DNA of 64,000 bases from Thermodesulfobacteriota bacterium. Lineage in GTDB: Bacteria > Desulfobacterota_D > UBA1144 > Nemesobacterales > JAJCZQ01. A program made the position numbers and the translations under genes. Position 1 is the stretch's first letter; each line of letters starts with the position of its first letter. The DNA is taken from the NCBI GenBank assembly GCA_965203965.1, contig CBDBDR010000017.1:544001-608000 (forward strand). The letters are read 5' to 3'. Below the pieces are notes generated by a model that saw only the letters and a program-made list of their open reading frames with translations, was not told the origin of the DNA and made no database searches. Positions 1-53,808 of this stretch are shown piece after piece.

Positions 1-2252
1 GACACGCGGCTCCCGGCATATACTCACGAGCCTTTCTTGAAGGAAGGATCACACTTAAACAGATAAAGCATTACAGAAAGGAATTAACTTATAAAGATGG
101 GCTGTCGTCATACCCTCATCCATGGCTTATGCCAGATTTTTGGGAATTTCCCACTGTTTCAATGGGGCTTTCACCTATCATGGCAATATATCAGGCAAGG
201 TTCAACAGGTATCTTGAAGATAGGAAATTAAAAGAGAAAACAGACAGTAAGGTCTGGGTTTTTATGGGTGATGGTGAAACAGATGAGCCTGAATCACTTG
301 GAGCAATAACCCTCGCATCAAGAGAAAATCTGGACAACCTGATATTTGTTGTAAATTGCAATTTGCAGAGGTTGGACGGGCCTGTAAGAGGAAACGGGAA
401 TATAATACAGGAGCTTGAAAGAATATTCAGAGGCGCAGGCTGGAACGTTATTAAACTGATATGGGGAAATGACGTTGATCAGTTACTGGAAAACGACAAA
501 GATGGACTACTTGTTAAAAGAATGGAGAGTGCTCTGGACGGTGATTACCAGAAATATACCGTTGCAGATGGGTCATACATAAGAGAGCATTTTTTTGGCA
601 CACATCCAAAGCTAAAGGAACTTGTAAAATCATATTCAGACCAAGATCTTAAGAAACTGAGAAGAGGAGGGCATGATAGTGAAAAGGTCTATGCAGCATA
701 TAAGGCAGCGGTAGACCATAAAAATTCACCAACTGTTATACTTGCAAAAACAATAAAAGGATATGGCTTGGGTGAAGCAGGAGAGGGCAGGAACGTTACC
801 CACAATCAGAAAAAACTAAATGAACAGGAGTTAAAAAAATTCAGAACGCGTTTCAGCATACCTATATCCGATGAAGAAGTTGCGAGGGCACCTTTCTACA
901 AGCCCGATGATAACAGTCCTGAAACTAAGTATTTAAAACAACAAAGGGAAAAACTCGGAGGGTATATCCCTACAAGAAAAGTATATGGAGAGCCAATAAA
1001 AAGTTTTAATGAAACAATATTTGACGAGTTTTACAAGGGATCGGGAAGCAGGCCTGTTGCAACTACAATGGCATACGTAAGAATGTTGTCAAAACTTCTC
1101 AGAGACAAACAAATAGGTAAGTTGATAGTGCCTATTATTCCTGATGAAGCAAGGTCTTTCGGTATGGAATCGCTCTTTAGGCAGGCAGGTATATATTCAC
1201 ATATAGGACAGTTGTATGAACCTGTTGACTCAGACAAGTTCCTTTATTATAAGGAAGCAAAAGACGGACAGATACTTGAGGAAGGGATCACTGAAGCAGG
1301 AGCCTTTTCATCATTTATAGCTGCTGGCACTGCTTATGCAACTCACGGCGTAAATACTATCCCATTTTTCATGTTTTACTCAATGTTCGGTTTCCAGAGA
1401 ATAGGGGATCTGATCTGGACGGGATTAGACATGAAATGTAAAGGATTTCTTATAGGCTGTACATCAGGTAAGAGTTCATTTGCGGGAGAGGGTTTGCAAC
1501 ATCAGGATGGAAGCAGCCATCACACTGCTTTTTCTTACCCTACAATAATGGCTTATGACCCTGCTTACGCCTATGAGTTTGCGGTTATTATCAAAGATGG
1601 CATAAAACGTATGTATATGGAATACCAGGATGTTTTTTATTATATAACGCTGCTCAACGAGATATATGAACAACCTCCAATGCCTGAAGGAGTGGAAGAA
1701 GGAATAATCAAAGGCATGTATTGCTTCAAAAAAAACAACGGGGAAAATTCTGGTAAACATGTAAATCTTCTCGGAAGCGGCGGTGTCTTGAATCAAGCTA
1801 TAGCTGCCTCAAAAATACTAGAAGAATACGGGGTTCTGGCGGATATTTGGAGCGTAACAAGCTACAAGGAACTTTACAAAGATGCACAGGACGTGGAAAG
1901 ATGGAACATTTTGAATGCAGATAAGGAGCCGAGAAAAAATTATATTGAACAATGCTTTGATAAAAAAGACGATGATACAATATACGTTGCGGTCTGCGAC
2001 TACATAAAAGCGGTTCCTGGTGCGGTCTCAAAATGGTTTGGCAAGAATTTTACGACACTTGGTACGGACGGGTTCGGCAGAAGTGATAACAGAGAGATGT
2101 TGAGATATCATTTTGAGGTCAATCCAGAATACATAGCCTATATAAGTCTGGTAGAACTTTACCGTAAAGGTGTAATTGATAAAAAATTGCTGGATAAAGC
2201 AAAGAAACGACTTAAAATAGACACTGATAAACCAAACCCAATATTTGTATAA
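1..2252 (+). CDS. aceE: Pyruvate dehydrogenase E1 (homodimeric type), 5'-truncated by window edge
   Basis: Frame is open from position 3 (HAAPGIYSRAFLEGR...SSYPHPWLMPDFWEFPTVSMGL); TPP motif GDGETDE...NCNLQRLDGPV; followed by E2 and E3. Confidence 0.97.
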   Translation, partial: HAAPGIYSRAFLEGRITLKQIKHYRKELTYKDGLSSYPHPWLMPDFWEFPTVSMGLSPIMAIYQARFNRYLEDRKLKEKTDSKVWVFMGDGETDEPESLGAITLASRENLDNLIFVVNCNLQRLDGPVRGNGNIIQELERIFRGAGWNVIKLIWGNDVDQLLENDKDGLLVKRMESALDGDYQKYTVADGSYIREHFFGTHPKLKELVKSYSDQDLKKLRRGGHDSEKVYAAYKAAVDHKNSPTVILAKTIKGYGLGEAGEGRNVTHNQKKLNEQELKKFRTRFSIPISDEEVARAPFYKPDDNSPETKYLKQQREKLGGYIPTRKVYGEPIKSFNETIFDEFYKGSGSRPVATTMAYVRMLSKLLRDKQIGKLIVPIIPDEARSFGMESLFRQAGIYSHIGQLYEPVDSDKFLYYKEAKDGQILEEGITEAGAFSSFIAAGTAYATHGVNTIPFFMFYSMFGFQRIGDLIWTGLDMKCKGFLIGCTSGKSSFAGEGLQHQDGSSHHTAFSYPTIMAYDPAYAYEFAVIIKDGIKRMYMEYQDVFYYITLLNEIYEQPPMPEGVEEGIIKGMYCFKKNNGENSGKHVNLLGSGGVLNQAIAASKILEEYGVLADIWSVTSYKELYKDAQDVERWNILNADKEPRKNYIEQCFDKKDDDTIYVAVCDYIKAVPGAVSKWFGKNFTTLGTDGFGRSDNREMLRYHFEVNPEYIAYISLVELYRKGVIDKKLLDKAKKRLKIDTDKPNPIFV

Positions 2253-2261
2253 GGAGTTGTA

Positions 2262-3674
2262 ATGAATGATATAACCCTTCCTGAGATCGGTGAAGGAATA
2301 AAGCAAGCCTCAGTTGTAAACGTCTTTATATCTCATGGAGACTCAATACAAAAGGAACAGCCGGTAATAGAAATAGAGACAGACAAGGCTGCCATTGAAC
2401 TTCCATCCCCCTATGACGGAACAGTCAGTGAGGTGGCTGTAAAAGTAGGTGATACCATAGGTATTGGGCAACTCATAGCAAAAATTAATGATGAAGCGGT
2501 AAATGGCAAGGAAAAACCCACTGAAAAAGCAAAAGAAAAAAAAGCTACCGAGCCGACAACAGTAGAAATAGCAGAAAATGAAGCAGTAAATGGCAAGGAA
2601 AAGCCCACCAAAAAAGCAAAAGAGAAAAAAGCTACCGAGCCAACAATAGAAACAGATCAAGAGATAACTAAGGAAGTTAAACCTGAAAATAAAGAAGTTC
2701 AAGAACATGATAAACAGAGCGACTTGAAACCAATTATTGATAAAGATGAGAAAAAAGTCTCTGTTCCAGCTTCTCCTTCCACGCGTAAATTGGCACGACA
2801 ACTTGGAATTGACATTGGTCGGGTATCAGGAACTGGGCCCGGAGGTAGAATTTCAACTGAGGACGTCATAAAACACGCTAAAAATATAATAAGTAGCTAT
2901 GACCAACAAACGTCAACTCACAGGGGAGCTTACATACCAAATCTTCCAGATCTTCCTGATTTTAACAAATGGGGAAAGATAGAGACGGTAAAAATGAACA
3001 CAGTAAGAAGGCTCACAGCAGACAATCTTTCAATGGCGTGGACGATCCCGCATGTTACGCAGCACGATAAAGTAGACATTACAGAACTGGATGAGCTTAG
3101 AAAGAAAAACAAGCAGAAGGCGAAGGAAGCAGGAGGAAATCTAACGATCACACCGATCCTAATAAAGGTCGTTGCCTCAGCGTTGAAGGTTTTTCCTGAA
3201 TTTAATGCAAGCATAGACATAGAGAACAACAATATAATTTACAAACATTTTTACAATATCGGCTTTGCCGTTGATACCGATAGAGGGCTTTTTGTACCAA
3301 ACATAAGAAACGCAAATCAAAAAAACATAATAGAGATCGCCGCGGAATTATCAGATATATCAAACAGAGTGAGAAATAAAAAAATAACACCAGATGAATT
3401 AAAAGGCAGCACATTTACCGTCAGTAATCTTGGAGGTGTGGGAGGAACTTATTTTTCACCCATAATATACTATCCGGATGTTGCAATCCTCGGTGTCTCA
3501 CAATCAACTATTGAACCAGTTTATATAAACGGGGCGTTTGAGCCGAGATTGATGATGCCTTTGTCACTCTCCTATGACCACAGAATAATTGACGGTGTAG
3601 CTGCTGCTACGTTTCTTAGATGGTTGGTAAGAGCACTTGAAGAACCTTTCAAAATTCTTTTTGAAGGACACTAA
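2262..3674 (+). CDS. aceF: Dihydrolipoamide acetyltransferase (PDH E2), single lipoyl domain
   Basis: Lipoyl motif ETDKA, E3-binding ASPSTRKLARQLGID, catalytic SYDHRIIDG; AAGGAG RBS. Confidence 0.95.
   Translation: MNDITLPEIGEGIKQASVVNVFISHGDSIQKEQPVIEIETDKAAIELPSPYDGTVSEVAVKVGDTIGIGQLIAKINDEAVNGKEKPTEKAKEKKATEPTTVEIAENEAVNGKEKPTKKAKEKKATEPTIETDQEITKEVKPENKEVQEHDKQSDLKPIIDKDEKKVSVPASPSTRKLARQLGIDIGRVSGTGPGGRISTEDVIKHAKNIISSYDQQTSTHRGAYIPNLPDLPDFNKWGKIETVKMNTVRRLTADNLSMAWTIPHVTQHDKVDITELDELRKKNKQKAKEAGGNLTITPILIKVVASALKVFPEFNASIDIENNNIIYKHFYNIGFAVDTDRGLFVPNIRNANQKNIIEIAAELSDISNRVRNKKITPDELKGSTFTVSNLGGVGGTYFSPIIYYPDVAILGVSQSTIEPVYINGAFEPRLMMPLSLSYDHRIIDGVAAATFLRWLVRALEEPFKILFEGH
2491..2646 (+). 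repeat. Imperfect direct repeat (period 87 nt) in the E2 linker, EAVNGKEKPT(E/K)KAKEKKATEPT x2
   Basis: atgaagc(g/a)gtaaatggcaaggaaaa... starts at 2491 and 2578. Confidence 0.9.
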
Positions 3675-5080
3675 TGAGCATAAAGACACAGCTTGCAATA
3701 ATCGGTGCAGGGCCAGGTGGTTATCCCGCGGCTTTCAGAGCAGCAGATCTGGGAATTGAAGTTACACTTATAGACCGTGAGGAGAACCCAGGAGGCGTGT
3801 GTCTTTACCGTGGATGTATACCATCAAAAACACTACTTCACGTTGCAAAAGTCATAAATGAATCCAAACACGCAGAAAAACTCGGTATAACTTACGCCAA
3901 ACCTACAATAGACGTGAAAAAAGTGGCAAAATGGAAAGATGAAGTTGTAGCCAAGCTAACGGCAGGAACTGGTTTTTTGGTGAAAAAGAGAAAGATCAAT
4001 TATATAAAAGGAAATGCAATACTCAGTGATACTCAAACAATAGAAGTTACAAAGCAAAAAGGGGATAAGGAAACTATCAGCTTTGAAAACTGTATTATCG
4101 CAACGGGATCCAGACCGAGTGATATACCGGGAATAAAAGTTGACAATAAAAAAATACTCAATTCAAAAGGTGCTTTAGACCTTGAAAAGGTGCCGAAAGA
4201 ACTATTGGTCGTGGGAGGTGGATACATAGGACTTGAAATGGGAACGGTGTATTCAGCACTCGGGTCAAACGTTACAGTAGTGGAAATGCTTGATTCCATA
4301 CTTGAGACAGTAGATAAAGACCTATCCAACATTCTTCATAAAAAATTAGAGAAGGAATTTAAATCAATTCTGCTTGGGACAAAAGTGCTTGAAGTCAACA
4401 ATACGAAGCGGGGTTTGAAGGTAACATTTGAAAACAAAGGAGACGGTATTTTTGAACGTGAATACGACAAAATACTCATATCAGTAGGACGAAAACCTAA
4501 CATTGACGGTCTTGGTCTTGAGAATACAAACGTAAAAATAAGCAAAGAAGGTTTTATTCAAACAGATCAGCAGAGAAGAACAAATGAGCCTAATATCTAT
4601 GCGGTTGGGGACGTGGCAGGCGAACCAATGCTTGCTCACAAGGCTACACATGAAGGTAGAGTGGCTGCCGAGGTTATTGCCGGCAAAGACGTTGCATACG
4701 ATGCCTCCTCTGTACCAGCGGTAATTTTTACAGACCCTGAAATTGCATGGTGCGGATTAACCGAAGAAGAGGCAAAGGAAAAAAACATTGATGTAAAAGT
4801 AACTAAATTCCCCTGGGGGGCATCTGGCAAAGCAACCATCCTTGATAGAACAGATGGATTGACAAAACTGGTTTTTGAAACTGAAACTGAGCGGTTGCTT
4901 GGTGTCGGAATAGTAGGAGCAGGAGCAGGAGAGCTTATATCTGAGGGAGTGCTTGCAGTGGAAATGGGGTCTCTTGTGTCTGACATATCACTGTCCATAC
5001 ACCCGCACCCAACCCTTACCGAAACCTTTATGGAAGCGGCGGAAATGTTTCATGGAAACAGCACACATTTAATAAGATAA
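3674..5080 (+). CDS. lpdA: Dihydrolipoamide dehydrogenase (E3)
   Basis: GAGPGG FAD motif, GGVCLYRGCIPSK redox disulfide, HPHPTLTE. Confidence 0.97.
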   Translation: MSIKTQLAIIGAGPGGYPAAFRAADLGIEVTLIDREENPGGVCLYRGCIPSKTLLHVAKVINESKHAEKLGITYAKPTIDVKKVAKWKDEVVAKLTAGTGFLVKKRKINYIKGNAILSDTQTIEVTKQKGDKETISFENCIIATGSRPSDIPGIKVDNKKILNSKGALDLEKVPKELLVVGGGYIGLEMGTVYSALGSNVTVVEMLDSILETVDKDLSNILHKKLEKEFKSILLGTKVLEVNNTKRGLKVTFENKGDGIFEREYDKILISVGRKPNIDGLGLENTNVKISKEGFIQTDQQRRTNEPNIYAVGDVAGEPMLAHKATHEGRVAAEVIAGKDVAYDASSVPAVIFTDPEIAWCGLTEEEAKEKNIDVKVTKFPWGASGKATILDRTDGLTKLVFETETERLLGVGIVGAGAGELISEGVLAVEMGSLVSDISLSIHPHPTLTETFMEAAEMFHGNSTHLIR

Positions 5081-5082
5081 AA

Positions 5083-5436
5083 TTGAGCGAGCTTGCTATG
5101 GAAATTCTCATATCTATGAAAGCCGACGACATGAACAGAACAAAGTTCCGCAATCTTCAGATGGATATGCCTGCAACTCAGGTTAATGGTCACTTTGTGG
5201 CTGAAATTAGAGAGTCGGACGACAAAACCATCAATTTACTTAAAAGATACGGGGAAATACTGCTGAAAAAGCTCAACAAAGGTGGAAACTATGCAGTGGA
5301 ATATACTGATATAGGTTTTAAGTTGAAAAAGCAGGTTGATAGTGAAAAAGACTACATGGAAGAATGGGAAAAATGGGTGGAATTCTCCAGAGAACTTTAC
5401 GAGGAACTTGAAGCATTTTTTGAGGAAGAAAACTGA
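5083..5436 (+). CDS. Hypothetical protein (start may be ATG at 5098)
   Basis: 117-aa ORF fills the gap between lpdA and ileS on the same strand; no recognisable motif. Confidence 0.7.
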   Translation: MSELAMEILISMKADDMNRTKFRNLQMDMPATQVNGHFVAEIRESDDKTINLLKRYGEILLKKLNKGGNYAVEYTDIGFKLKKQVDSEKDYMEEWEKWVEFSRELYEELEAFFEEEN

Positions 5437-5463
5437 ATTTTACTGCATTTGACCTATAAATGA

Positions 5464-8409
5464 ATGATGTCTAAAAAAGAAAAAACAAATTACAAAAACA
5501 GTTTGAACCTTCCTAAAACCAGCTTTTCAATGAAAGCTAATCTAATTCATAAAGAACCCGATATGCAGAAAATATGGGATCGGGAAAACCTGTATGAAAA
5601 TATAAGAAAACAGTCTGCTGGTAGAAATAAATTCATCTTTCACGATGGCCCCCCTTATGCAAACGGTCCAATTCACCTTGGACACCTTTTGAACAAAGTC
5701 CTTAAAGACTTCGTGGTAAGATCAAAGACAATGGAAGGGTATGATGTGGATTTTGTTCCCGGATGGGATTGTCATGGGCTCCCCATTGAGCATAAAGTCC
5801 TTAAAGACTTGAGAGATAAGGCAAAAAATTACACTAAACTGCAGATCAGGAACAAATGCCAAAGTTATGCGAGCAAATTTGTAAAAATACAATCAAAGCA
5901 GATGAAGAGGCTCGGGACAATTGGTAATTATAATGACCCTTACATGACCATGGTTTCTGGGTATGAGGTGGGCGTTTTAGAAGTATTTGCATCTCTCATG
6001 GATAACGGTCTTGTTTATAGAGATTTGAAACCTGTCCATTGGTCAATTGAAAACCAGACCGCTCTTGCAGATGCAGAACTTGAATACTATGAAAGAACAG
6101 ATAAAAGTGCATTTGTCCTTTTTCGTATAAATCAAACTGAAAATCTACCCGAGTCGTTAAATGCTTCATCGGAAGACACTTTTTTAATGATATGGACAAC
6201 AACGCCCTGGACGCTCCCGGCAAACCTCGCAGTTGCTGTTTCACCAATAGGTAATTACGGCTTATACGAGTTAAATCACAAGGGAAAGAAGGTTTTTGCA
6301 GTTCTATCCGAGTTACTTGCTGAAAAGGTGCTTGCCAAAGTAGGTGTCAGTAAATTCAAAAAGATCGGAAGCTGTACGGGAAAAGAACTTGTTGAAAGCA
6401 CCATTACTTATGACCATCCATTTGCGGGAAGGGATGGAGTTGTTGTAAGTGCAGAATACGTTACTTTTGAGGATGGAACAGGACTTGTTCACATTGCCCC
6501 GGGGCATGGAATTGAGGATTATCAGACCGGATTGAAAGAAGGGCTGGATGTTTACTGTCCCGTTCTGGCCGACGGCACATTTGATGAAACCGTCCCAGAT
6601 TGGCTTCAAGGTGTAGACGTCTGGAAAGGCAATCAATCGGTAATTGATAGTTTAAAGCAAAGTGAAAACCTGTTTTTTGAAGAGGAATACACACACAGCT
6701 ATCCACACGACTGGCGTAGCAAAACACCGACGATCTTCAGGGCTGCTGAACAGTGGTTCATAAACGTGGATAAACCTTATGGCAAAGATAAGAGGACGCT
6801 GAGAGAAAAAGCGATTGAAAGTGCTACAAACGAGATCAAATTCTTTCCTGAATGGGGAAAAAACAGGTTAAAAGGCATGCTTGAAGCACGACCAGACTGG
6901 TGTATATCAAGGCAACGATCATGGGGGTTGCCAATACCTTATTTTGTTAATGATGAGGGAGAATATCTCTTAACGGCAAAGATTGTAAAGCTGATCACCT
7001 CCAGAATAGCTGAAAAAGGGTCTAACGTGTGGTTTTTAGAAGATGCCGCAAATATGCTTGAGGGTTATGATCCTCTAGATGATCCTGACGCTCCAGATTG
7101 GATAAAAGAAAATCCTGAATTGGTGAAAAACGGCTTAAAGAAGGGGACGGATATATTTGACGTGTGGTTTGAATCTGGATCTTCATGGAAGGCAGTTCTT
7201 AAACATCCAGATAGAAATATAGGCTATCCAGCAGACCTTTATCTTGAAGGCTCTGACCAGCATCGTGGCTGGTTCCAGTCATCATTGCTCACTGCTATTG
7301 GAGCAACAGATATACCTCCATTCAAAGCACTCCTTACTCATGGTTTCATGGTTGATGCAGATGGCAAAAAGATGAGCAAATCCGGCGGCAATGCATTAGA
7401 GGTAGACGAACTATTAAAAAACTATGGGGCAGATATATGCAGGTGGTGGGTCAGCACGCTAAAATACTCCAACGATATAAAAACGGATTGGAAATACTTC
7501 AAAGTCGCAGCCGATGAATACAGAAAGATCAGGAATACAATAAGATTCTTATTGGGTAATACGAGTGATTTTGATCCCGTAAAAGATAAAATCATATTTA
7601 CTGATGAAGACAGATTTTCCATTGATTACTGGGTTTATGCCAATCTTTCAAAATTTGTTTTGGAAGCTAAAAAAGCCTATAGTGAATTTGATTATAAACG
7701 TGTTAGTGAACTAACGTTTAACTTCTGCAGTGATACATTAAGTTCGGTTTATCTGGCAGCTATAAAAGACAGGCTGTATTGTGATAAAAGGAACAGCAGG
7801 CGCCGCAGACGCTCGCAGACAGTTATGTATGAAATAGCAGACAGTTTAATAAGACTGCTTGCTCCCATACTTGTAACCACGGCTGATGAAGCATATAGGT
7901 GTCTTGGTGAACTACGTGGAACTGATGAAGTAAAAAGTGTACATCTTACTGAATTTCCTACCATTCCTAGTATTGAACTTGATAACGTCTGGAATGAAAT
8001 TTTCAGCATAAGAAACGAATCCCTCAAGGAACTTGAAAAAACCAAAAATGACGGGGTCTCAAATCCATTGGATGCTGGTATTAAGGTGAGTTTTAACACT
8101 GATTTTTTTAACACTGATTTCTTTAGTATCATAAAACCTTATGAGCCTGAACTTGCCGATCTTTGTGGAGTAAGTCGTTTCAATGTTGTTACAATCACGC
8201 CAAAGGTTATTAAAGGTGGTCATGCAATCACGCCAAAGGTTATTAAAGGTGGTCATGCAATCACGCCAAAGGTTATTAGCGTTGAAGTTTATAGTTTAAC
8301 TACAGAGGTTCGGTGTGAAAGGTCATGGAAACGTGACGAAACTGTAAAACAAAGAGCAGATGGTGGAATGCTCAGCGATAGAGATGCCGAGGCAATTGAA
8401 ATTAATTAA
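5464..8409 (+). CDS. ileS: Isoleucyl-tRNA synthetase (type 1)
   Basis: DGPPYANG-HLGH, PGWDCHGLP, WTTTPWT, WCISRQR, EGSDQHRGWF, KMSKS. Confidence 0.97.
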   Translation: MMSKKEKTNYKNSLNLPKTSFSMKANLIHKEPDMQKIWDRENLYENIRKQSAGRNKFIFHDGPPYANGPIHLGHLLNKVLKDFVVRSKTMEGYDVDFVPGWDCHGLPIEHKVLKDLRDKAKNYTKLQIRNKCQSYASKFVKIQSKQMKRLGTIGNYNDPYMTMVSGYEVGVLEVFASLMDNGLVYRDLKPVHWSIENQTALADAELEYYERTDKSAFVLFRINQTENLPESLNASSEDTFLMIWTTTPWTLPANLAVAVSPIGNYGLYELNHKGKKVFAVLSELLAEKVLAKVGVSKFKKIGSCTGKELVESTITYDHPFAGRDGVVVSAEYVTFEDGTGLVHIAPGHGIEDYQTGLKEGLDVYCPVLADGTFDETVPDWLQGVDVWKGNQSVIDSLKQSENLFFEEEYTHSYPHDWRSKTPTIFRAAEQWFINVDKPYGKDKRTLREKAIESATNEIKFFPEWGKNRLKGMLEARPDWCISRQRSWGLPIPYFVNDEGEYLLTAKIVKLITSRIAEKGSNVWFLEDAANMLEGYDPLDDPDAPDWIKENPELVKNGLKKGTDIFDVWFESGSSWKAVLKHPDRNIGYPADLYLEGSDQHRGWFQSSLLTAIGATDIPPFKALLTHGFMVDADGKKMSKSGGNALEVDELLKNYGADICRWWVSTLKYSNDIKTDWKYFKVAADEYRKIRNTIRFLLGNTSDFDPVKDKIIFTDEDRFSIDYWVYANLSKFVLEAKKAYSEFDYKRVSELTFNFCSDTLSSVYLAAIKDRLYCDKRNSRRRRRSQTVMYEIADSLIRLLAPILVTTADEAYRCLGELRGTDEVKSVHLTEFPTIPSIELDNVWNEIFSIRNESLKELEKTKNDGVSNPLDAGIKVSFNTDFFNTDFFSIIKPYEPELADLCGVSRFNVVTITPKVIKGGHAITPKVIKGGHAITPKVISVEVYSLTTEVRCERSWKRDETVKQRADGGMLSDRDAEAIEIN
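8091..8120 (+). repeat. 15-nt tandem duplication in ileS (FNTDF x2)
   Basis: ttttaacactgattt at 8091-8105 and 8106-8120. Confidence 0.85.
8192..8278 (+). repeat. 33-nt perfect tandem repeat x2.6 in ileS (ITPKVIKGGHA)
   Basis: caatcacgccaaaggttattaaaggtggtcatg at 8192 and 8225, partial copy at 8258. Confidence 0.95.
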
Positions 8410-8413
8410 GGTT

Positions 8414-8755
8414 TTATCCGGGTGGCCAGGTCATTTTTCGTCCACCTAAAAGATGAAAATGAAGATGAAAGACGCTCTGACCAGCATCTGAATTTATATT
8501 TGTTACCACGCGATAGCCACTTTCCTCAATTCCTTCCTGCCTTGCTATTTCTGACGTTTTAACCATTAAATGCCCTAAAATTTCCAGATCCTCGCTTTCT
8601 GCCGTAGCCAAAGATACAATCTCTTTCTTCGGTATTACAAGAATGTGAACGGGTGCCTGCGGCTTTATATCCCTGAATGCAAGGCATATATCATCCTCGT
8701 AAACTATATCAGCGGAAATCTCTCTATTTATTATCTGCCTAAATATTGTACTCAT
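8414..8755 (-). CDS. HIT-family nucleotide-binding protein (HinT-like)
   Basis: AFRDIKPQAPVHILVIPK and HLHFH triad, C-terminal GGRKMTWPPG. Confidence 0.93.
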   Translation of the reverse strand: MSTIFRQIINREISADIVYEDDICLAFRDIKPQAPVHILVIPKKEIVSLATAESEDLEILGHLMVKTSEIARQEGIEESGYRVVTNINSDAGQSVFHLHFHLLGGRKMTWPPG

Positions 8756-8979
8756 TGAATTGATTTACCCTTTGAATGAGAAGTAAACAATACATTAAAA
8801 TTGACAAATTTGTTATTGAGATTTTCTTTAACAAAATTTAATAAATTAGGTTAAGTTTAATATTATTCAATAATAACAATGTATTATACTTTATTTTTAA
8901 TATATTACTCTAACTATATTAAATGGCTGATAAGATATATTATGTAAACTATATTTTTATTAACAAAAAAACCATAATC

Positions 8980-9008
8980 TTGAACAAACTTATCTCAGAG
9001 ATTATAAT
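8980..9008 (+). promoter_or_regulatory. Putative sigma70 promoter for the FmdB-SDR genes
   Basis: TTGAAC (8980-8985), 17-nt spacer, TATAAT (9003-9008); GGAG RBS before ATG 9045. Confidence 0.65.
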
Positions 9009-9044
9009 TAACTCTATTCCCACAATTACTTATGGAGATACAAA

Positions 9045-9389
9045 ATGCCCATATATGAATATCAATGTCAACAGTGTGAATACATGTTTGAGGAAATACA
9101 GGGATTCAATGACGAACCAATAAGAAAATGTCCGAAATGCAAAAAAAATAAGGTTACAAGATTAATATCCCTTTCAGCTTTTCATCTGCAGGGATCAGGC
9201 TGGTATGAAACTGATTACGGTAAAAAAAAGAAAGCTTCAACTGGTCCATCTCCATCCAAAAAAGAAAAAACTGGAGATACTGCCACGGAAACCGTAACAT
9301 CCGGAACACCTGATGGAGAGTCTTCTTCCGCTACTATTGATTCAATAAAAAAGGACACTGCCAAAGCCAAAGGATCAAAAGTTATATGA
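9045..9389 (+). CDS. FmdB-family zinc-ribbon putative regulator with low-complexity tail
   Basis: MPIYEYQCQQC...CPKC...GSGWYETDY. Confidence 0.9.
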   Translation: MPIYEYQCQQCEYMFEEIQGFNDEPIRKCPKCKKNKVTRLISLSAFHLQGSGWYETDYGKKKKASTGPSPSKKEKTGDTATETVTSGTPDGESSSATIDSIKKDTAKAKGSKVI

Positions 9390-10177
9390 ATTTAGGTATA
9401 AAAGATAAAATTGCGATAATATCAGCATCTAGCAAGGGATTGGGTAAAGCATGTGCCGAAGAACTGGCAGCTGAAGGATGTAATTTGACGATATTTTCAA
9501 GAAATCTGGCAAATATTACCAAGACAGCAAATGAAATAAGAGACAAATACAAAGTCAATATTTTATGTATAAAAGCCGATGCTAGCAATTCTAAAGACAT
9601 AAAAAACGTCGTTAAATTCACTATAAAAGAGTATAAGACCGTTCATATCCTCATAAATAATGCAGGTGGTCCACCCTTTGGCTATTTTGAGGATTTCAAT
9701 TCAAACGACTGGCAAAAAGCATTGGAATTAAATCTGTTAAGTGTTGTTAATTTAACTAAAGAGGCTATTCCATATATGAAAAAACAACAATGGGGTAGAA
9801 TCATTAACATCACGTCAATCGCCGTAAAGCAGCCCATAGATGGACTTATACTTTCCAATACGGCAAGAACAGGAGTAATTGGTTTTGCCAAAACGCTGTC
9901 AAATGAATATGGAAAATATAATATATTGATCAACAATGTATGTCCCGGGAGAATAATGACCGACAGAATAACCGAACTTGCTGAAAAAAGAGCCAAAGAA
10001 ATAAAGAAAAGCGTAAAATCAGTTATAAAAAGTATGGAATCCGATATACCGGTTGGAAGAATTGGCACTCCCCGGGAACTTGCTTCAATGGTAGCCTTTC
10101 TATCTTCAGAAAAAGCCAGCTATATAACAGGAAATACTATCCAGTTAGATGGTGGATTGAATAAAGGGTTGTTTTAA
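9386..10177 (+). CDS. Short-chain dehydrogenase/reductase
   Basis: ASSKGLG, NNAGGPP, ITSIAVKQP, YITG; overlaps the upstream gene by ATGA. Confidence 0.9.
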   Translation: MNLGIKDKIAIISASSKGLGKACAEELAAEGCNLTIFSRNLANITKTANEIRDKYKVNILCIKADASNSKDIKNVVKFTIKEYKTVHILINNAGGPPFGYFEDFNSNDWQKALELNLLSVVNLTKEAIPYMKKQQWGRIINITSIAVKQPIDGLILSNTARTGVIGFAKTLSNEYGKYNILINNVCPGRIMTDRITELAEKRAKEIKKSVKSVIKSMESDIPVGRIGTPRELASMVAFLSSEKASYITGNTIQLDGGLNKGLF

Positions 10178-46396: not shown

Positions 46397-47581
46397 TTAT
46401 TCTATAATTCCTGTAACTACGCCGGCACCTACAGTTCTTCCCCCTTCTCTTATCGCAAACCTCAACTGCTCATCCATCGCAACAGGACTTATCAACTCTA
46501 CCTCCATGTTTATATTGTCTCCAGGCATTACCATCTCTACTCCTTCTGGTAATTTTATACTCCCCGTTACATCTGTTGTCCTAAAATAAAACTGCGGACG
46601 ATATCCAGGAAAAAACGGCGTATGCCTCCCCCCTTCCTCCTTCTTCAACACATATACCTCTGCATTAAATCTCTTGTGCGGCGTTATCGAACCAGGTGCA
46701 GACAACACCTGCCCTCGCTCCACTTCATCCTTCCCTATGCCTCGCAGCAACACTCCTACATTATCTCCTGCCTGCGCATCATCAAGTATCTTACGAAACA
46801 TCTCCAAACTCGTAGCTACCGTCTTGTGTGTCTCCCTAAACCCCACTATCTCTATACCATCTCCTGCTACTATCTTGCCTCGCTCTACCCTTCCTGTTAC
46901 TACCGTCCCCCTCCCTGATATTGTAAACACATCCTCTATCGCCATCAAAAACGGCCTATCCAAATCTCGCTCCGGCTCCGGTATATAATTATCAACACTC
47001 CCCATTAACTCCTTTATCTTCTCCTCATACTCCTCTTCCCCTTCCAACGCCTTTAGTGCACTTACCTTAACCACCGGAACCTCATCCCCAGGAAATTCAT
47101 ACTGACTCAACAACTCTCTCACTTCTAATTCCACTAAATCTAACAACTCTTCATCATCTAACATATCTACCTTGTTCAAGGCAACTACCATATACGGCAC
47201 CCCTACCTGCTTCGCCAACAATATATGCTCTCTTGTCTGAGGCATCGGCCCATCTGGTGCACTCACCACTAATATCGCACCATCCATCTGCGCTGCTCCC
47301 GTTATCATGTTCTTTACATAATCCGCATGTCCCGGACAATCCACGTGCGCATAATGCCTACCATCTGTCTCATATTCCACGTGCGCTATGCTTATCGTTA
47401 TCCCCCGCTCCCTCTCCTCAGGTGCCTTGTCTATATTCTCAAACTCTACAAACTCTGCTTGCCCTTGCTTAGATAATACCTTAGTTATTGCCGCCGTTAA
47501 CGTCGTCTTACCATGATCCACATGTCCTATTGTCCCTATGTTTAAATGAGGCTTCCCTCTCTCAAATCTCTCCTTGGACAT
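46397..47581 (-). CDS. tuf: Elongation factor Tu
   Basis: [37 protein letters not shown]. Confidence 0.99.
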
Positions 47582-48060: not shown

Positions 48061-49665
48061 ATGTCATATCTAGTTCTAGCAAGAAAATGGAGACCAAAAA
48101 CATTCAGCGATGTTACAGGTCAACGTTATATAACTATTGCATTGAAAAACGCTATAACTTCCGGAAAACTTGCCCACGCTCTTATATTCTCTGGTCCCAG
48201 AGGCGTTGGCAAAACAACCACTGCCAGAATAGTAGCCAAAGCCCTTAACTGCATTAACTTGGAAAATGAAAAATTGACGTGTGAAAACGGAGACCACACT
48301 TGTTCATTCTGCTCCGAAATATCAGAGGGCAGATGTGTTGATGTATTAGAAATAGACGCTGCATCTCATACAGGTGTGGACGACGTAAGGGAAATAACGG
48401 AAAACGTAAAATACCTCCCGGGTTCTGCAAAAAAGAAGGTTTATATAATTGATGAAGCACACATGCTGTCTCAATCGGCTTTTAATGCACTTTTGAAAAC
48501 GCTTGAAGAGCCTCCCGATCACGTACTTTTTATACTTGCAACCACGGAATCACACAAAATTCCAGCAACTATCCGGTCAAGATGCCAGAGTTATGATTTC
48601 AAAAAACTCTCAATAAACGAAATAAAGTCACAGCTTGAGCAAATCTCAGAATTTGAAGAGGTATCAATAGATCAACAAACGCTGATCACAATATCCAAAG
48701 AAGCTGACGGGAGTATAAGAGACGCACTGAGTATAATGGATCAGCTAATGGCAACATTCGGTAGCAATATCAGTTACGATGAAACTCTCAACGCACTGGG
48801 GCTTTTGGATAAAACCCATTTGTATGAACTGTTAAAAGGCATAATAGAAAAAAAAACCAGTAGATCAATTGAAACACTGAAGCATATAACCAGTCGGGGA
48901 ATAATACACAAAAGGATTGCAGACGACCTTGTAAACATGCTGAGAAATTCTCTCTTCATAAAAATCTGCGGAGATGAATTGGATATGGAATTAACCGACG
49001 ACGATATTAAAAATATTAAAAACCTTGTCTCCGGCAAGAGTGCAGAGGATATTGAGTTGCTCTTCAGTCTCGCAATTGAAAATGCCGATAGTGTGCACAG
49101 GTCATACTTCCCTGATCTTGCTCTGGAATCAATGATTATAAAGCTTGCCTCAATTGATACTACGATACCAATAAACCAGATTATGGAAAAAATAGAGAAT
49201 CTCTCTGTGGCTCTCAATAACAACACTATCCAGAACAAAAAAGTAAATGTTGCACCAACAATTCAATCCACTCAAAAAGAAACAGTTAACGATGAAGAGA
49301 AAACGGAGGAAAAAATTTTTGATACATTCACCTCTTTTATTAAAAGCCAAAATACAATATTGGGATTGTATTTGGAAAAATCAGATTCAATAACCAGAGA
49401 TGAAAAAACTCTTAAAATTGTATTTAACGACAATTCAATCAGTTTTGAAAAAATAAGTAAAAAAGACTCACTGAACAACCTGAAATCATTAGCCAGTGAT
49501 TTTTATAAGACTGAAATGAATGTCAGGGTTGAATTAAGCGACGGACAAGCATCAGCTAAACACAGTGAAAATAGGCTCGTCACAAGAGATGAAAAAACTA
49601 CGGCAGACAACCGTGTTTTCAAAGAGGCAATAAAAATTTTTGATGGAAAGATAGTTAAAAATTAG
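48061..49665 (+). CDS. dnaX: DNA polymerase III subunit tau/gamma
   Basis: LARKWRP, GPRGVGKTT, EIDAAS, IIDEAHML, LLKTLEEPP, SRC. Confidence 0.97.
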   Translation: MSYLVLARKWRPKTFSDVTGQRYITIALKNAITSGKLAHALIFSGPRGVGKTTTARIVAKALNCINLENEKLTCENGDHTCSFCSEISEGRCVDVLEIDAASHTGVDDVREITENVKYLPGSAKKKVYIIDEAHMLSQSAFNALLKTLEEPPDHVLFILATTESHKIPATIRSRCQSYDFKKLSINEIKSQLEQISEFEEVSIDQQTLITISKEADGSIRDALSIMDQLMATFGSNISYDETLNALGLLDKTHLYELLKGIIEKKTSRSIETLKHITSRGIIHKRIADDLVNMLRNSLFIKICGDELDMELTDDDIKNIKNLVSGKSAEDIELLFSLAIENADSVHRSYFPDLALESMIIKLASIDTTIPINQIMEKIENLSVALNNNTIQNKKVNVAPTIQSTQKETVNDEEKTEEKIFDTFTSFIKSQNTILGLYLEKSDSITRDEKTLKIVFNDNSISFEKISKKDSLNNLKSLASDFYKTEMNVRVELSDGQASAKHSENRLVTRDEKTTADNRVFKEAIKIFDGKIVKN

Positions 49666-49679
49666 AAGGTCATCCAACA

Positions 49680-50513
49680 TTAAATGAACTTTCTATTTTT
49701 ATTTATTCTCTCATATTCTTTTACTATCCTACTTAGAGTGGAGTAGTGTAAGGAAAAATAATCAGCCAATTGTTTAAGAGTGTAATCACCGCTCAGATAT
49801 GCTTTTGAAATTGCTGCCTCTCTGGAATTAGAGGAATCTACATACTGCTGAATTGGAACAGATCTCTGTATCTTTGGGATCTCTCTCATATCCTTTTTAT
49901 TATCAATATGGTTTAGCATTTCGGTTATAAAATCCTCATCGCCTAAGAATATCTGCTTTCTTACCTGCTCTAAAACGTTTTCCTCTGAATCTGTAATTGC
50001 TGAAAATTCTGATTTGAAATCATCAAAGAGGCTTTCTACATAATCTTTACTGAACCAGTAGGGACACTCTTCCCTGTCAAACAGATACTTACAACTGCTC
50101 CACTTGAACTGATAGGGAGAAGAAACAAATCCTGACTTCACTGGACGGAATAAAATATATTTAATTAAATCTGTAAGGTATTTGTTCTTTTGAACCAGAA
50201 CTGCTTTGTATCGCCCCTGAAAAATATGACCAACTCTGTTATGCTCCCTGTTAAATTTCTGGGTATAAATCCCGTTCAACTGCCTCATTCCTCTGGATAG
50301 ATTAGGATTTGGTGTTTCAACTACAATCATGTAGTAGTTACCCATAAGACAATATGAATAACAGACCCAGCCAAATCTCCCGCAAACATTTTCAAAAATT
50401 TCCAACCATGCTTCAGCATCCTCGGGCTTCAAAAACACATTCTGTAAAGCATTGCCTTTGGTAATAATAAAATAAACTGCACCGGGTAACTCAATTCTTA
50501 ATGAACGTGCCAT
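49680..50513 (-). CDS. REP-associated (RAYT/Y1) tyrosine transposase homolog with C-terminal HTH; HUH motif lost
   Basis: MARSLRIELPGAVY, YCLMGN, NLSRGMRQLNGIYTQ.FN, GHIFQGRY, WSS, YTLKQLADYFSLHYSTLSR; expected NHYH reads NYYM. Confidence 0.85.
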   Translation of the reverse strand: MARSLRIELPGAVYFIITKGNALQNVFLKPEDAEAWLEIFENVCGRFGWVCYSYCLMGNYYMIVVETPNPNLSRGMRQLNGIYTQKFNREHNRVGHIFQGRYKAVLVQKNKYLTDLIKYILFRPVKSGFVSSPYQFKWSSCKYLFDREECPYWFSKDYVESLFDDFKSEFSAITDSEENVLEQVRKQIFLGDEDFITEMLNHIDNKKDMREIPKIQRSVPIQQYVDSSNSREAAISKAYLSGDYTLKQLADYFSLHYSTLSRIVKEYERINKNRKFI

Positions 50514-50546
50514 AATCGTATATTCTAGCCAATATTAAAATTAACA

Positions 50547-50560
50547 CAAGACTTGACCCC
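50547..50560 (-). repeat. Single REP/end-like motif GGGGTCAAGTCTTG upstream of the RAYT homolog
   Basis: Resembles the GGGGTCAGGTCTTG motif recalled as flanking this transposase subgroup; no partner copy seen downstream. Confidence 0.45.
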
Positions 50561-50652
50561 TAAAATATGTTTCAGATATTTAAATCCCAATCAATGTGTT
50601 TTAAAAGCATTCCTTTTATCCGAAACTTTCTGAAAGAAACACCAAATGTTAT

Positions 50653-51486
50653 TCAACTTTTATCTCTCATATCTTTCAGTAGCTTTATATCAGCAGCAAC
50701 TTGGTTGGGTGGGTTTTCAACAATAAGGTTTAAATGCCTTAGACTCTCGTTTCCAATAATTGCTTCAAATCCCCCCAAACCTATTTTACCTTCACCTATA
50801 AGTTCATGCCTGTCTTTTTTCCCACCCAAACCCACTTTTGAATCATTACCATGAATTAACTTCAGTTTGTCCATTCCAAATGTTTTTTCCACCTGATCAA
50901 GTGTCCTATTTAACTCCTTGTCATCTCTGAGGTCGTAACCTGCTGCAAACACATGTGCAGTATCAAAACAAACACCCAGTTCACTGTTATCAACGATATC
51001 CAGTATTTGAGCAAGTTCCTCAAATTTATCACCAATCGTATCACCCTGCCCTGCTGAGTTTTCCAGTAGCAGTTTCGCGGTTCCATTGTATCCTTCCAAT
51101 ATCCTCAGAATAGAATCAGCAACCCTGATAACTGATCTCTGGCGTGTCATTTCTTTTGAACTTCCAAGATGGGTCATTACATATTTTGCTTTGAGCAATG
51201 ATGACCTATCTAAATCTTTGCTGATAATTCCTATTGAATTGCTTCTTACTTCTTCATCAATGGAAGCTAAGTTAATAAAGTAAGGAGTGTGAACATAGTA
51301 GCTACTCAACCTATATTTTGAACAATCCGACAAAAATTTCCCAATTACATTATCACTTAACACGGGGGCTTTGCCTCCCCGTGGGGATCTTGTGAAGATC
51401 TGAAAGCACTCACAGCCCAGATCAAAAGCCCTGCTTGGTACTTTCTCAACTCCACCTGCAATTGACACATGGCTTCCAAAATACAT
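50653..51486 (-). CDS. nfo: Endonuclease IV
   Basis: GSHVSIAGG, HTPYFINL, LLENSAGQG, CFDTAH, HGNDSK, DRHE. Confidence 0.95.
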   Translation of the reverse strand: MYFGSHVSIAGGVEKVPSRAFDLGCECFQIFTRSPRGGKAPVLSDNVIGKFLSDCSKYRLSSYYVHTPYFINLASIDEEVRSNSIGIISKDLDRSSLLKAKYVMTHLGSSKEMTRQRSVIRVADSILRILEGYNGTAKLLLENSAGQGDTIGDKFEELAQILDIVDNSELGVCFDTAHVFAAGYDLRDDKELNRTLDQVEKTFGMDKLKLIHGNDSKVGLGGKKDRHELIGEGKIGLGGFEAIIGNESLRHLNLIVENPPNQVAADIKLLKDMRDKS

Positions 51487-51585: not shown

Positions 51586-52134
51586 ATGATCCCCGACAAA
51601 GCATTTATTACAAAGGGCGTTGGTAAGCACAAAGAAAAGTTAACCAGTTTTGAGATGGCACTCAGAAACGCCGGCATTGCTTCATTCAATCTTGTAAAAG
51701 TTTCCAGTATATTTCCCCCGTATTGCAAGCTGATTTCCAGAGATAACGGTTTAACCATGTTATCACCCGGACAGGTTGTTTATGTTGTTATGAGTGAAAA
51801 CTCAACAAATGAGCCAAACCGTCTTATTGCTGCATCTGCAGGGTTGGCTATTCCAAAAAATCAAAAATATCATGGCTATATCTCGGAGCACCATAGTTTT
51901 GGACAAAAAGAGACGGTAGCAGGAGATTATGCCGAAGATCTGGCTGCATATATGCTTGCAACAACTCTTGGTGCCATGTTTGACCCGGACAAAAGCTATG
52001 ATGAACAAAAAGATATCTGGGAGATCAGCGGACACAAGGTCAAATCAAGAAACATCACTCAAACAGCAGTTGGCGATAAGAACAGTTTATGGACAACCGT
52101 GATAGCTGCCGTGGTATTTTGCAGCTATAGGTAA
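51586..52134 (+). CDS. Pyruvoyl-dependent arginine decarboxylase
   Basis: SFEMALRNAGI, NLVKVSSIFPP (Ser-Ser self-cleavage site), GYISEH, WTTVIAA. Confidence 0.9.
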   Translation: MIPDKAFITKGVGKHKEKLTSFEMALRNAGIASFNLVKVSSIFPPYCKLISRDNGLTMLSPGQVVYVVMSENSTNEPNRLIAASAGLAIPKNQKYHGYISEHHSFGQKETVAGDYAEDLAAYMLATTLGAMFDPDKSYDEQKDIWEISGHKVKSRNITQTAVGDKNSLWTTVIAAVVFCSYR

Positions 52135-52146
52135 GAACTGTCCCGT

Positions 52147-53808
52147 TCAAGAAGCCTTGGACAACATTTCCCTCGCTGCTTCAAGTGTTTTTTCAGTAAT
52201 GTTTTTTCCCGTAAGCATTCTGCCTATCTCTTCAATTCTTTCCTCATCATTCAATCTGTTGATTACCACGTTTGTGCGATCATTCTCAACAAATTTTGAC
52301 ACTTTAAAATGAGTTTTGGCAAACTTTGCTACTTGAGGCAGATGCGTTATGCAGATGACTTGGTTGTTTTCAGATAAACCTTTAATTTTCTTCCCTATGG
52401 TTTCTGCTGTAACACCACCGATACCTGAATCAATTTCGTCAAATATTAATATTGATCCTATCTCTTTATTTGAAAGAATATCTTTTAAAAGAAGCATTAT
52501 TCTTGATAATTCCCCTCCTGATGCAACTTTGACCAGAGGTTTTGGAACCTCATCAGGATTTGCTGAGAATAAAAAGGAGATCTTGTCAATACCATCAGGA
52601 GAAGTAGGTTTTTCTTGCATTTCCACTTTCAGAACTGCACCTTTAAGCCCCAGGTGTTTAGACTCTTCAGCAAAAAAGCACATGAGTCTTTCAGATGCCT
52701 CTTTTCTTTTCAAAGAAAGCTGTTTTGCTAAAGAATCTAACTTGGTGAACAACTGTTCACGTTGTTGCTTCAATTGGTCAACTGTATCATCCCAGTTTGC
52801 TAAATCTGAGAGCTCTTGGGATATTTTTTCTCTTTTTCCCAGTATTTCTTCAACTGTTCCACCATATTTTCTCTTTATGCCATTGATCTCCGCTATTCGG
52901 CTGTTGATTTCTTCCAGCCTTTCGGGGTTAAATTCCATTCTGGATAAATAGTCATTCAGTTTGAAAGAAACATTTTCAAGCTCAAATATAATTGATTTCA
53001 CTGAATCGTTAAGTTCGCTCAAGCCTGGATCTATTTCACCCAGTTCTTCAATCTCTTTGGACACGTTTTTAACCGTGTCATATGCTGACGATCCTGATTC
53101 GTAAATTGCACTGTATGAACGGCTTAAATAACTGCTTATTTTCTCAACATTGGAAAGTATTTTTTCCTCTTGCACAAGCTTTTCTTCTTCCCCTTTTTGC
53201 AGGCTTGCGTCGTCCAACTCGTTGAGTTGATATTTTAAATATTCTCCTTTTCCAAATTGATCTTTTGCTTTTACAAGCAATCTCTCAAGCTCTTTATCGG
53301 TATTCAAATATTGGTAATATGAACTTTTGCACTCTTCAAGTAACGATATATTGTCCGAGTAAGAATCCAGAAACTTCAAGTGATTGTTTGGTTTTATTAA
53401 TGACTGATGCTCATGCTGACTGAAGGTGTCAACCAGATTAGTTGTTAGGTCGGCAAGTACGCTCAAGGTAGCCATACTACCGTTAATAAAAACTTTGCTC
53501 CTCCCTTCAATCGGAATCAATCTTCTGATAACGAGTTGTCCATCATTTGCACTAAATCCTCGTTCTTCCAACTTTTCTACAATCCAATTGCTATTGTTTA
53601 TATCAAACAAGGCTTCTACCATTGCCTGTTTCTTTCCCGTCTTTACAATATCTGGAGATACCCTATCACCTAAAAGTATGTTGATAGCATCAATAATTAT
53701 GGATTTTCCAGCCCCGGTCTCACCTGTAATTATGTTAAGACCATCTGAAAATTCCACGGTTAAGCTGTCTATTACTGTGTAATCCTTTAGAGAGATCTGA
53801 ACAAGCAT
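52147..53808 (-). CDS. recN: DNA repair protein RecN
   Basis: GETGAGKS, QHEHQ, ASGGELSR, FDEIDSG, ITHLPQVA. Confidence 0.96.
   Translation of the reverse strand: MLVQISLKDYTVIDSLTVEFSDGLNIITGETGAGKSIIIDAINILLGDRVSPDIVKTGKKQAMVEALFDINNSNWIVEKLEERGFSANDGQLVIRRLIPIEGRSKVFINGSMATLSVLADLTTNLVDTFSQHEHQSLIKPNNHLKFLDSYSDNISLLEECKSSYYQYLNTDKELERLLVKAKDQFGKGEYLKYQLNELDDASLQKGEEEKLVQEEKILSNVEKISSYLSRSYSAIYESGSSAYDTVKNVSKEIEELGEIDPGLSELNDSVKSIIFELENVSFKLNDYLSRMEFNPERLEEINSRIAEINGIKRKYGGTVEEILGKREKISQELSDLANWDDTVDQLKQQREQLFTKLDSLAKQLSLKRKEASERLMCFFAEESKHLGLKGAVLKVEMQEKPTSPDGIDKISFLFSANPDEVPKPLVKVASGGELSRIMLLLKDILSNKEIGSILIFDEIDSGIGGVTAETIGKKIKGLSENNQVICITHLPQVAKFAKTHFKVSKFVENDRTNVVINRLNDEERIEEIGRMLTGKNITEKTLEAAREMLSKAS

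Follow-up and report, generated by a model that had tools for sequence, protein, structure and literature searches.

A gene on the minus strand (49680..50513) of a 64,000-nt stretch of DNA from a Thermodesulfobacteriota bacterium (GenBank assembly GCA_965203965.1, contig CBDBDR010000017.1, positions 544,001 to 608,000; this whole stretch is called the window in the following) was investigated. The gene is best explained as derived from a TIRtron transposase (family TIRYT, TnpA_Y1 subclass 2.1), domesticated and nuclease-dead, with a product that binds a relic transposon end. On the basis of sequence comparison, a probability of about 0.6 is given to this explanation. Most likely, the gene product would work as a DNA-binding regulator of its host. 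A domesticated protein without catalysis had been suggested in an initial annotation made from the letters of the window alone. The loss of catalytic His residues across the clade and the purifying selection measured here support this suggestion, and we infer that the protein no longer cuts DNA.

Fold, replaced catalytic residues and family

The open reading frame (ORF) comprises 277 codons with an ATG start and without internal stops. In the protein a Y1 fold of the HUH (His-hydrophobic-His) type, a linker and a C-terminal helix-turn-helix (HTH) were distinguished:

49680..50513, minus strand: gene for the degenerate TIRYT-like protein of 277 aa (Y1/HUH fold aa 1-145, linker 146-225, HTH about 226-270)
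50328..50336, minus strand: Y60-Y61-M62 in place of the H-u-H metal-binding motif (codons tac tac atg)
50469..50474, minus strand: Y14-F15 in place of the strand-1 Y-H of the family (comparison with intact relatives)
50145..50159, minus strand: Y119-I-L-F-R123, with the nucleophile Tyr kept and the metal-ligand Asn replaced by Arg (alignment)
49704..49838, minus strand: C-terminal HTH, aa 226-270, including HYSTLSRIV (Pfam, profile and model)

Pfam assigned aa 28-120 to Y1_Tnp (PF01797) with 36.4 bits (cut-off 23, E 6.7e-9). With a profile of 120 homologs (alignment A1), TnpA-REP of Escherichia coli (4ER8) was the best solved relative (E 0.0027). For this enzyme H59, H61 and N119 are described as metal ligands and Y115 as nucleophile (PMC3479197). 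The profile alignment placed the family motif h-Y-h on H59-M60-H61 and the motif rYvvlNP on D-Y115-I-Y-I-N119-P of 4ER8. Because of this alignment, the positions which the initial annotation had named as HUH motif, nucleophile and third ligand are regarded as the true ones. All three metal-ligand positions are changed in the window protein (Y60, M62 and R123), and Tyr is retained at the nucleophile position (Y119, codon 50159-50157). Compared with an active enzyme, the His-hydrophobic-His motif and the third ligand four residues past the Tyr (here R123, codon 50147-50145) are missing; the catalytic Tyr on helix alpha-D is present. The uninterrupted ORF, the HUH reading Y60-Y61-M62 (tac tac atg, 50336-50328), the strand-1 YF and Y119-ILF-RP, all given in the initial annotation, were confirmed in this way.

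A model of the window protein was calculated with AlphaFold2 (AF2) from alignment A1 and reached a mean predicted local distance difference test score (pLDDT) of 91.9. It shows the Y1 fold. In a Foldseek search with this model, 4er8_A was the top match (E 8.8e-8, template modelling score 0.74 on target), followed by TnpA of ISDra2, IS608 and IS200. The prediction of a homodimer from two copies gave a score of 0.00, which is uninformative either way. The proposed HTH was recovered by a profile match to the N-terminal HTH of DeoR/SorC (E 0.003) and by three modelled helices at 231-275; in Pfam it was weak, with HTH_28 and HTH_23 under the cut-off at E 0.035. H256, Y257 and S261 are at least 90% conserved over the 120 homologs and are all present in the window protein. 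The recognition helix H-Y-S-T-x-S-R-I-V is nearly invariant in intact and dead members alike, as is the core of the transposon end treated below.

The gene had been labelled as a REP-associated tyrosine transposase (RAYT; REP, repetitive extragenic palindrome). This label could not be maintained, and the family is TIRYT instead. The NCBIfam equivalog REP_Tyr_transpos (NF047646) was matched with 56.1 bits, below its cut-off of 80. No REPs or bacterial interspersed mosaic elements (BIMEs) and no other dispersed repeat family were found in the flanks of the gene; comparison of the 139-nt upstream spacer with the genome gave chance matches only, of 15 nt or less. The signatures of subclass 2.1 are given as FQ, W-S-S, a C-terminal HTH_23/28 or DnaA_C-like tail and a length of ~240-290 aa (Table 1, PMC6006769). 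The window protein has F98-Q99, W138-S139-S140, an HTH_23/HTH_28-type tail at 226-270 and 277 aa. Because of its length, both sequence signatures, the tail and the absence of REPs, it is assigned to TnpA_Y1 subclass 2.1. The catalytic signatures NH[YF]H and Y[IV]HLNP are replaced by N59-Y-Y-M and Y119-ILF-RP. The closest intact homologs share 40-48% identity with the window protein. For one homolog (P0083), the label 'addiction module toxin RelE' of the source annotation was set aside; Pfam gives Y1_Tnp.

Quentin et al. (2018, PMC6006769) equate subclass 2.1 with TIRYT/TIRtron (PMC3733652) and with RAYT Group 1 (PMC5581495). A TIRtron is described as a gene between terminal inverted repeats (TIRs) sharing GGGGWSAS, and HUH and Tyr are reported as retained in all published TIRYTs (Di Nocera, De Gregorio and Rocco 2013, PMC3733652). 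Family sequences without the core motifs, 202 of 924, were dropped by Quentin et al. as probably non-functional (PMC6006769, 'HuH and Y motifs').

Homologs of the window protein were collected with a word-indexed search (1355 at E up to 0.001, 120 of them listed) and with an exhaustive search (26,306, of which 775 at E up to 1e-30). Among the 120 listed, P0002-P0020 and P0023-P0025 (53-69% identical) read x-Y-M/I/L/V/F/Y at the HUH motif, YF in strand 1 and x-P-V in place of N-P-V. P0021 has HYE, and P0022 keeps HYH with Tyr exchanged for Phe. The listed homologs of at most 48% identity mostly read YH, HYH and Y...NPV. A tree of 82 rows was calculated with the trait columns omitted (IQ-TREE quick search, SH-aLRT support only). 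Within a starred clade of 50 rows (98*), the strand-1 His is absent throughout. In the nested, starred f1 clade (97*) with the window protein the second His is absent in all 22 rows, and Tyr119 is kept in all 22. Thus, close relatives with an intact HYH, which would have spoken against domestication, were not found there. The former catalytic positions vary in close kin (60 is Y/R/K/H, 62 is M/I/L/V/F and 123 is R/S/C/L/Q/I/M), and the adjoining residues are invariant. Such a contrast is to be expected when selection for catalysis has ceased.

The genome holding the window (G000) was compared with 40 relatives of the same order, in which f1 is the family of the window genome and f6, f7 and f8 are other families. 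The degenerate gene was found in 18 genomes of f1, f6 and f8 (carriers); the other 23 genomes of the order are non-carriers. Each of the three families lost different catalytic residues. In f1 the HUH motif reads R/K/Y-Y-M and Tyr is kept. In f8 it reads G/E/D-Y-H, and Tyr is replaced by His in seven of eight genomes. In f6 HYH is kept, and Tyr is replaced by His or Asp in four of five. Single matches per genome were obtained for 3/4 relatives of f1, 5/6 of f6 and 8/8 of f8, and the second match in G004 (f1) is a fragment of 63 aa. The gene is single-copy in 17 of the 18 carriers; G000 has one full copy, which is the sole Y1_Tnp match in the genome. The gene tree clusters by host family. Mobile forms were observed in f7, where G035 and G016 contain 20 and 8 matches, several of them broken by stops and with HYH intact in the copies read. 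Hence, the order contains, beside the tamed form, mobile copies that have multiplied and are decaying.

The ratio of nonsynonymous to synonymous substitution rates (dN/dS) was determined pairwise with NG86 and YN00 for 18 pairs, many of them with dS above 1 and three with dS not computable by saturation. It was 0.058-0.16 with NG86 (15/18 pairs) and up to 0.22 with YN00; the least saturated pairs (dS 0.13-0.81) gave 0.07-0.10. By domain, values of 0.03-0.135 for the Y1 core, 0.02-0.15 for the HTH and 0.08-0.26 for the linker were obtained. The Y1 core is constrained like the HTH and more than the linker, so the old nuclease fold still does something. The ORFs are intact in all 18 genomes, and the orthologs of f1, f6 and f8 differ by 30-58% in protein sequence. 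The initial annotation had taken the intact reading frame as a sign of selection after the loss of catalysis. With a dN/dS of 0.06-0.22 and full-length, single-copy orthologs in 18 genomes of three families, this is supported; decayed copies with a dN/dS near 1, which would have argued for the opposite, were not what was found.

The transposon end, the promoter and the solitary cores

Transposon ends were surveyed in 80 further relatives from named genomes, mostly of Pseudomonadota. Sufficient flanking sequence was present for 67 of them, and 66 of the 67 were catalytically intact. The core GGGGTCAGGTCTTG was found upstream of the gene in 63 of the 66 intact relatives and lies 41-50 nt before the start in 38 of these 63. 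An inverted core was detected in 45, either at most about 20 nt from the stop codon or 100-170 nt past it, and both cores are present in 44. Since the core brackets the intact relatives, the motif is the TIR core of the TIRtron.

Upstream of the window gene one such core is retained:

50547..50560, minus strand: left TIR core GGGGTCAAGTCTTG, retained from the ancestral TIRtron, overlapping the -35 position
50522..50527, minus strand: -10-like hexamer TAGAAT, read by eye, ending 8 nt before the ATG; no Shine-Dalgarno sequence

The first base of the core lies 47 nt and the last base 34 nt before the ATG. As GGGGTCAA, it fits GGGGWSAS at seven of eight positions. The sequence (G)GGGTCA(A/G)GTCTTG was found in all 18 orthologs of f1, f6 and f8, where it starts 43-50 nt before the ATG in otherwise unalignable flanks. 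A downstream inverted core was present in none of these 18 dead orthologs. For the window gene, no inverted partner was found from -60 to +400 of the stop. By local alignment, all 22 orthologs examined for an inverted partner stayed under the 95th percentile of shuffles.

The core stands at a constant distance over the promoter of the gene. The f8 core passes into an exact TTGACA, from which 17 nt lead to TATAAT and another 7 nt to the ATG. The f6 core lies within the 7-1-7 palindrome GGTCAAG-T-CTTGACC. The window has a weak -35 sequence, TTGTGT, separated by 16 nt from TAGAAT, with 8 nt between TAGAAT and the ATG. Apparently, the mRNA is leaderless or nearly so, as judged from a promoter read by eye and backed by the orthologs. 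An integration host factor (IHF) site was also considered for the core and was ruled out by eye, as the spacing did not fit the consensus. In a marine metatranscriptome (one study, four runs), contigs matched 49400-50900 with 99-100% identity, mostly at the ends of the neighbouring genes dnaX and nfo. One run only gave a 176-nt contig inside the gene (50219-50394); such contigs of an RNA library show neither transcription, strand nor start.

Further cores occur elsewhere in the carrier genomes. The 13-mer GGGTCARGTCTTG was found at least twice in 18 of the 18 carriers; among the 23 other genomes, three have one hit and 20 have none. The reversed pattern, used as control, gave 0-1 hits per genome. 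G019, an f6 genome of 95% completeness without the gene, has zero copies of the 13-mer.

Three sets of solitary cores are conserved. In all five f1 genomes the identical 13-mer precedes the birA start by 19-42 nt, on the opposite strand and in unalignable flanks. It lies ~110-135 nt before tRNA-Met; genes for a zinc-ribbon protein, RNase H and RNase P RNA come next. The site of G000 is located outside the window:

Contig C17, 733467-733479: solitary TIR core GGGTCAGGTCTTG in the spacer between the birA start and tRNA-Met

In f8 the core adjoins the same conserved flanking sequence in five of eight genomes. In G033, the only one with ORFs listed, this site lies between the stop of a methyltransferase gene and the start of htpG. 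In f6 two cores, 91 nt apart, are located inside a cluster of 3-5 DnaA-box-like 9-mers in four of five genomes; the fifth has one core. The cluster of G031 (locus L083, 500-730) adjoins the 3' end of a putative mnmE-like gene, so named from its C-terminal residues. In the three f6 genomes checked, the cluster lies ~18-19 kb from dnaA. It is possibly a replication origin. The GC skew is a weak indication for this: the cumulative minimum of G015 lies within ~5 kb of the site, and G031 gave no signal. No DnaA-box cluster was found near any core of G000. The three sets at birA/tRNA-Met, htpG and the DnaA cluster look like footprints.

The locus and its history

The gene lies between two genes of DNA metabolism:

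48061..49665, plus strand: dnaX (gamma/tau subunit of the clamp loader), convergent, 14 nt from stop to stop; lineage-specific neighbour outside the system
50653..51486, minus strand: gene for an Nfo-like apurinic/apyrimidinic (AP) endonuclease (AP_endonuc_2), upstream and co-oriented; lineage-specific neighbour outside the system

Both neighbours are arranged as the initial annotation had described them. As an argument for domestication, the core DNA-metabolism context carries no weight, because these neighbours are not shared and a stub of the gene remains at the ancestral locus. No gene within ~8-12 kb of the dnaX/nfo neighbourhood is shared with any of 18 relatives, and nfo has other neighbours in G001 and G004. 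Hence, the borders of an insertion cannot be defined from an empty site. Synteny of the gene was observed within f6, which has its own conserved order, and within f8; downstream of it, the order of genes is common to G002 (f1) and f8, and G001 and G002 have the upstream gene in common. It was not found at the window's own locus.

In G001 the ortholog stands directly behind a gene of 449 aa. The counterpart of the latter in G000 (~90% identical) ends at position 955231 of contig C17 and is followed by the remnant of the gene:

Contig C17, 955259-955351, outside the window: remnant of ~25 codons of the 3' end of the gene, ending in LQLADYFFLHYSAVSRIIKGYEQEF and a stop; syntenic with G001

The DNA of this region is 83% identical to G001 over 326 nt; then follows the 3' end of an unrelated ORF, named phosphomutase-like by eye. 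The ancestral copy of G000 is destroyed, and a full copy with the upstream core is present elsewhere. The window copy has a unique C-terminal tail of eight residues, and its upstream similarity to G001 begins at the core, as read by eye. The stub is closer to the G001 gene (54/68 nt) than to the window copy, in a stretch of ~70 nt only. This hints at re-acquisition rather than recent duplication of the window copy. The window gene is the only Y1_Tnp in G000; therefore, no resident active relative could have moved it.

Some further observations concern the surroundings. Directly upstream of the gene and on the same strand, G001 (L032, 8946-10265) and G002 (L033, 6674-7984) have an ORF of 440 aa without Pfam family; with tblastn at 1e-15 it was not found in G000. 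Ordinary housekeeping genes flank the window locus, among others an ORF read by eye, without family search, as elongation factor EF-Tu (46397-47581, minus strand). A pyruvoyl-dependent arginine decarboxylase (51586-52134, plus strand) and a RecN-like SMC ATPase (52147-53808, minus strand) are also encoded. The cumulative GC skew of the 1.5-Mb contig C17 peaks near 550 kb, which corresponds to about positions 1-10000 of the window. The window is probably near the replication terminus, with the gene ~44 kb from it.

Competing readings and known systems

As a domesticated regulator, the protein would still recognize the 13-14-bp TIR core GGGGTCA(A/G)GTCTTG, probably via the almost invariant recognition helix of the HTH, and the constrained Y1 core may contribute to this recognition. 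Binding at the core would cover the -35 position and could lead to autoregulation (repression) of the leaderless transcript. At the few solitary cores that are conserved, binding would give a small host regulon, consisting of birA/tRNA-Met in f1, htpG in f8 and the DnaA-box cluster in f6. The ligand is likely the relic transposon end, as a double-stranded, operator-like site at the own promoter and not necessarily as a hairpin. A more extensive proposal is that the order turned the TIRtron together with its cis-sites into a transcription or chromosome factor, with the cores fixed as regulatory sites at the own promoter and at host loci. We regard it as tentative, with odds clearly below even.

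Several observations weigh against domestication without catalysis or against the proposed sites. None of the 22 clade rows has lost Tyr119, and constraint is strongest in the Y1 core; some chemistry or a covalent step may remain. Several of the extra 13-mer hits fall within coding sequence that is itself conserved (for example in both tuf genes of G017 and in pgi of G000), and part of the genome-wide excess of the 13-mer may be coding coincidence. Promoter and leaderless start are readings by eye, because a scan with the promoter consensus called no minus-strand promoter upstream of the ATG. The -35 sequence of the window matches the consensus at three of six bases only, and the core is only half palindromic in the window and in f1. 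The gene of G000 is not at the ancestral locus, so the unit moved or was re-acquired at least once. Finally, members of one family are kin, and genome counts are not independent.

Three other explanations were weighed. The best surviving of them, an accessory factor of replication or repair whose Y1 core grips exposed single-stranded DNA (ssDNA) or a hairpin at the TIR core, for example at an origin, is rather improbable. The binding of ssDNA hairpins is described for HUH Y1 enzymes (PMC3479197), and the Y1 core is constrained as much as the HTH. The f6 genomes would fit such a factor with their paired cores in the DnaA-box cluster (four of five genomes, one core in the fifth) and with a promoter palindrome that could extrude. 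However, the cores of f1 and f8 are not hairpin-forming palindromes, G000 lacks a DnaA-box cluster near its cores, and the f6 origin itself is weakly backed by GC skew in G015 and not at all in G031. The constant place of the core over the -35 is as expected of an operator.

A still-active strand transferase or transposase, which would rely on Tyr119, either with substitute ligands or without metal, and mobilize itself or other DNA, is quite unlikely. The invariant Tyr119 of the clade (22/22), the low dN/dS of the Y1 core (0.03-0.135), the first His kept in some clade members (HYM, HYI, HYL) and, in G000, a gene at a new place and a stub at the former one would be explained by it. Both His residues and the Asn ligand are nevertheless replaced in the window protein, and no conserved substitute was found at those positions. 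Purifying selection of the same kind acts in the sister families f8 and f6, where even the Tyr is gone in 7/8 and 4/5 genomes. None of the 18 orthologs has a right end, the gene keeps its position within f6 and within f8, and each genome has one copy, with no other Y1_Tnp in G000. That the gene is a functionless relic, an immobilized transposase gene with its decay still to come, as the treatment of motif-less members as probably non-functional by Quentin et al. (2018, PMC6006769) might suggest, is hardly credible in view of intact ORFs in 18 genomes of three families at 30-58% protein divergence, a contradicting dN/dS of 0.06-0.22, an upstream core conserved amid unalignable flanks, and a full copy kept by G000 while the old one was lost.

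The TIRYT family or subclass 2.1 is the largest RAYT-like group. To our knowledge, none of its proteins has been tested experimentally. The locus described here shows that 'dead' members can be long-lived, selected host genes. For the domesticated regulator, the relic end over the own promoter is a short and concrete candidate ligand, and the motif also points to a small number of conserved candidate target sites. This would offer a direct handle on the role of the TIR and of the HTH tail across the whole family. Moreover, a transposase and its end would here have been co-opted jointly in a bacterium. Regulator-plus-binding-site networks derived from transposons are known from eukaryotes, and the cores found here, if the reading is true, would constitute a network of this kind. 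The TIRYT family is known, and domestication of RAYT-like genes is not a new idea. A nuclease-dead TIRYT of a whole clade with one retained, promoter-overlapping end and solitary cores was not found in print by a full-text search of the freely accessible main texts.

Compared with known systems, the window gene is most similar to TIRYT/TIRtron. It shares the length of ~280 aa, the Y1 core, F-Q and W-S-S, the HTH_23/HTH_28-type tail and the lack of REPs, and its upstream core fits GGGGWSAS at 7/8, with a distance to the start like that of 38/63 intact relatives. In contrast to TIRYT/TIRtron, the protein is without HUH, strand-1 His and Asn ligand, and the gene is without a downstream inverted repeat. 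It is single-copy, stable across three families and under purifying selection.

TnpA-REP of E. coli (YafM, 4ER8) is the best structural and profile match, with the nucleophile Tyr aligned. Its gene, too, counts as domesticated and is present in low copy number (Messing et al. 2012, PMC3479197). Unlike the window protein, TnpA-REP is described there as keeping H59, H61 and N119, cutting REP hairpins with Mn2+, being flanked by REPs and having no HTH tail.

Comparable in its course of evolution is TldR. These proteins are reported as nuclease-dead derivatives of TnpB which act as RNA-guided transcription factors (PMC10705468). TnpB is the partner family in IS200/IS605, and the course proposed for the window gene follows the same logic, in which a transposon nuclease loses catalysis and the host keeps it as a sequence-specific, repressor-like factor. 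The fold of TldR is another one and its recognition is by guide RNA, whereas for the window protein recognition of DNA by the protein itself, at a relic transposon end, is predicted. If the domesticated reading is true, the window gene would be a counterpart of the TldR regulators on the side of TnpA.

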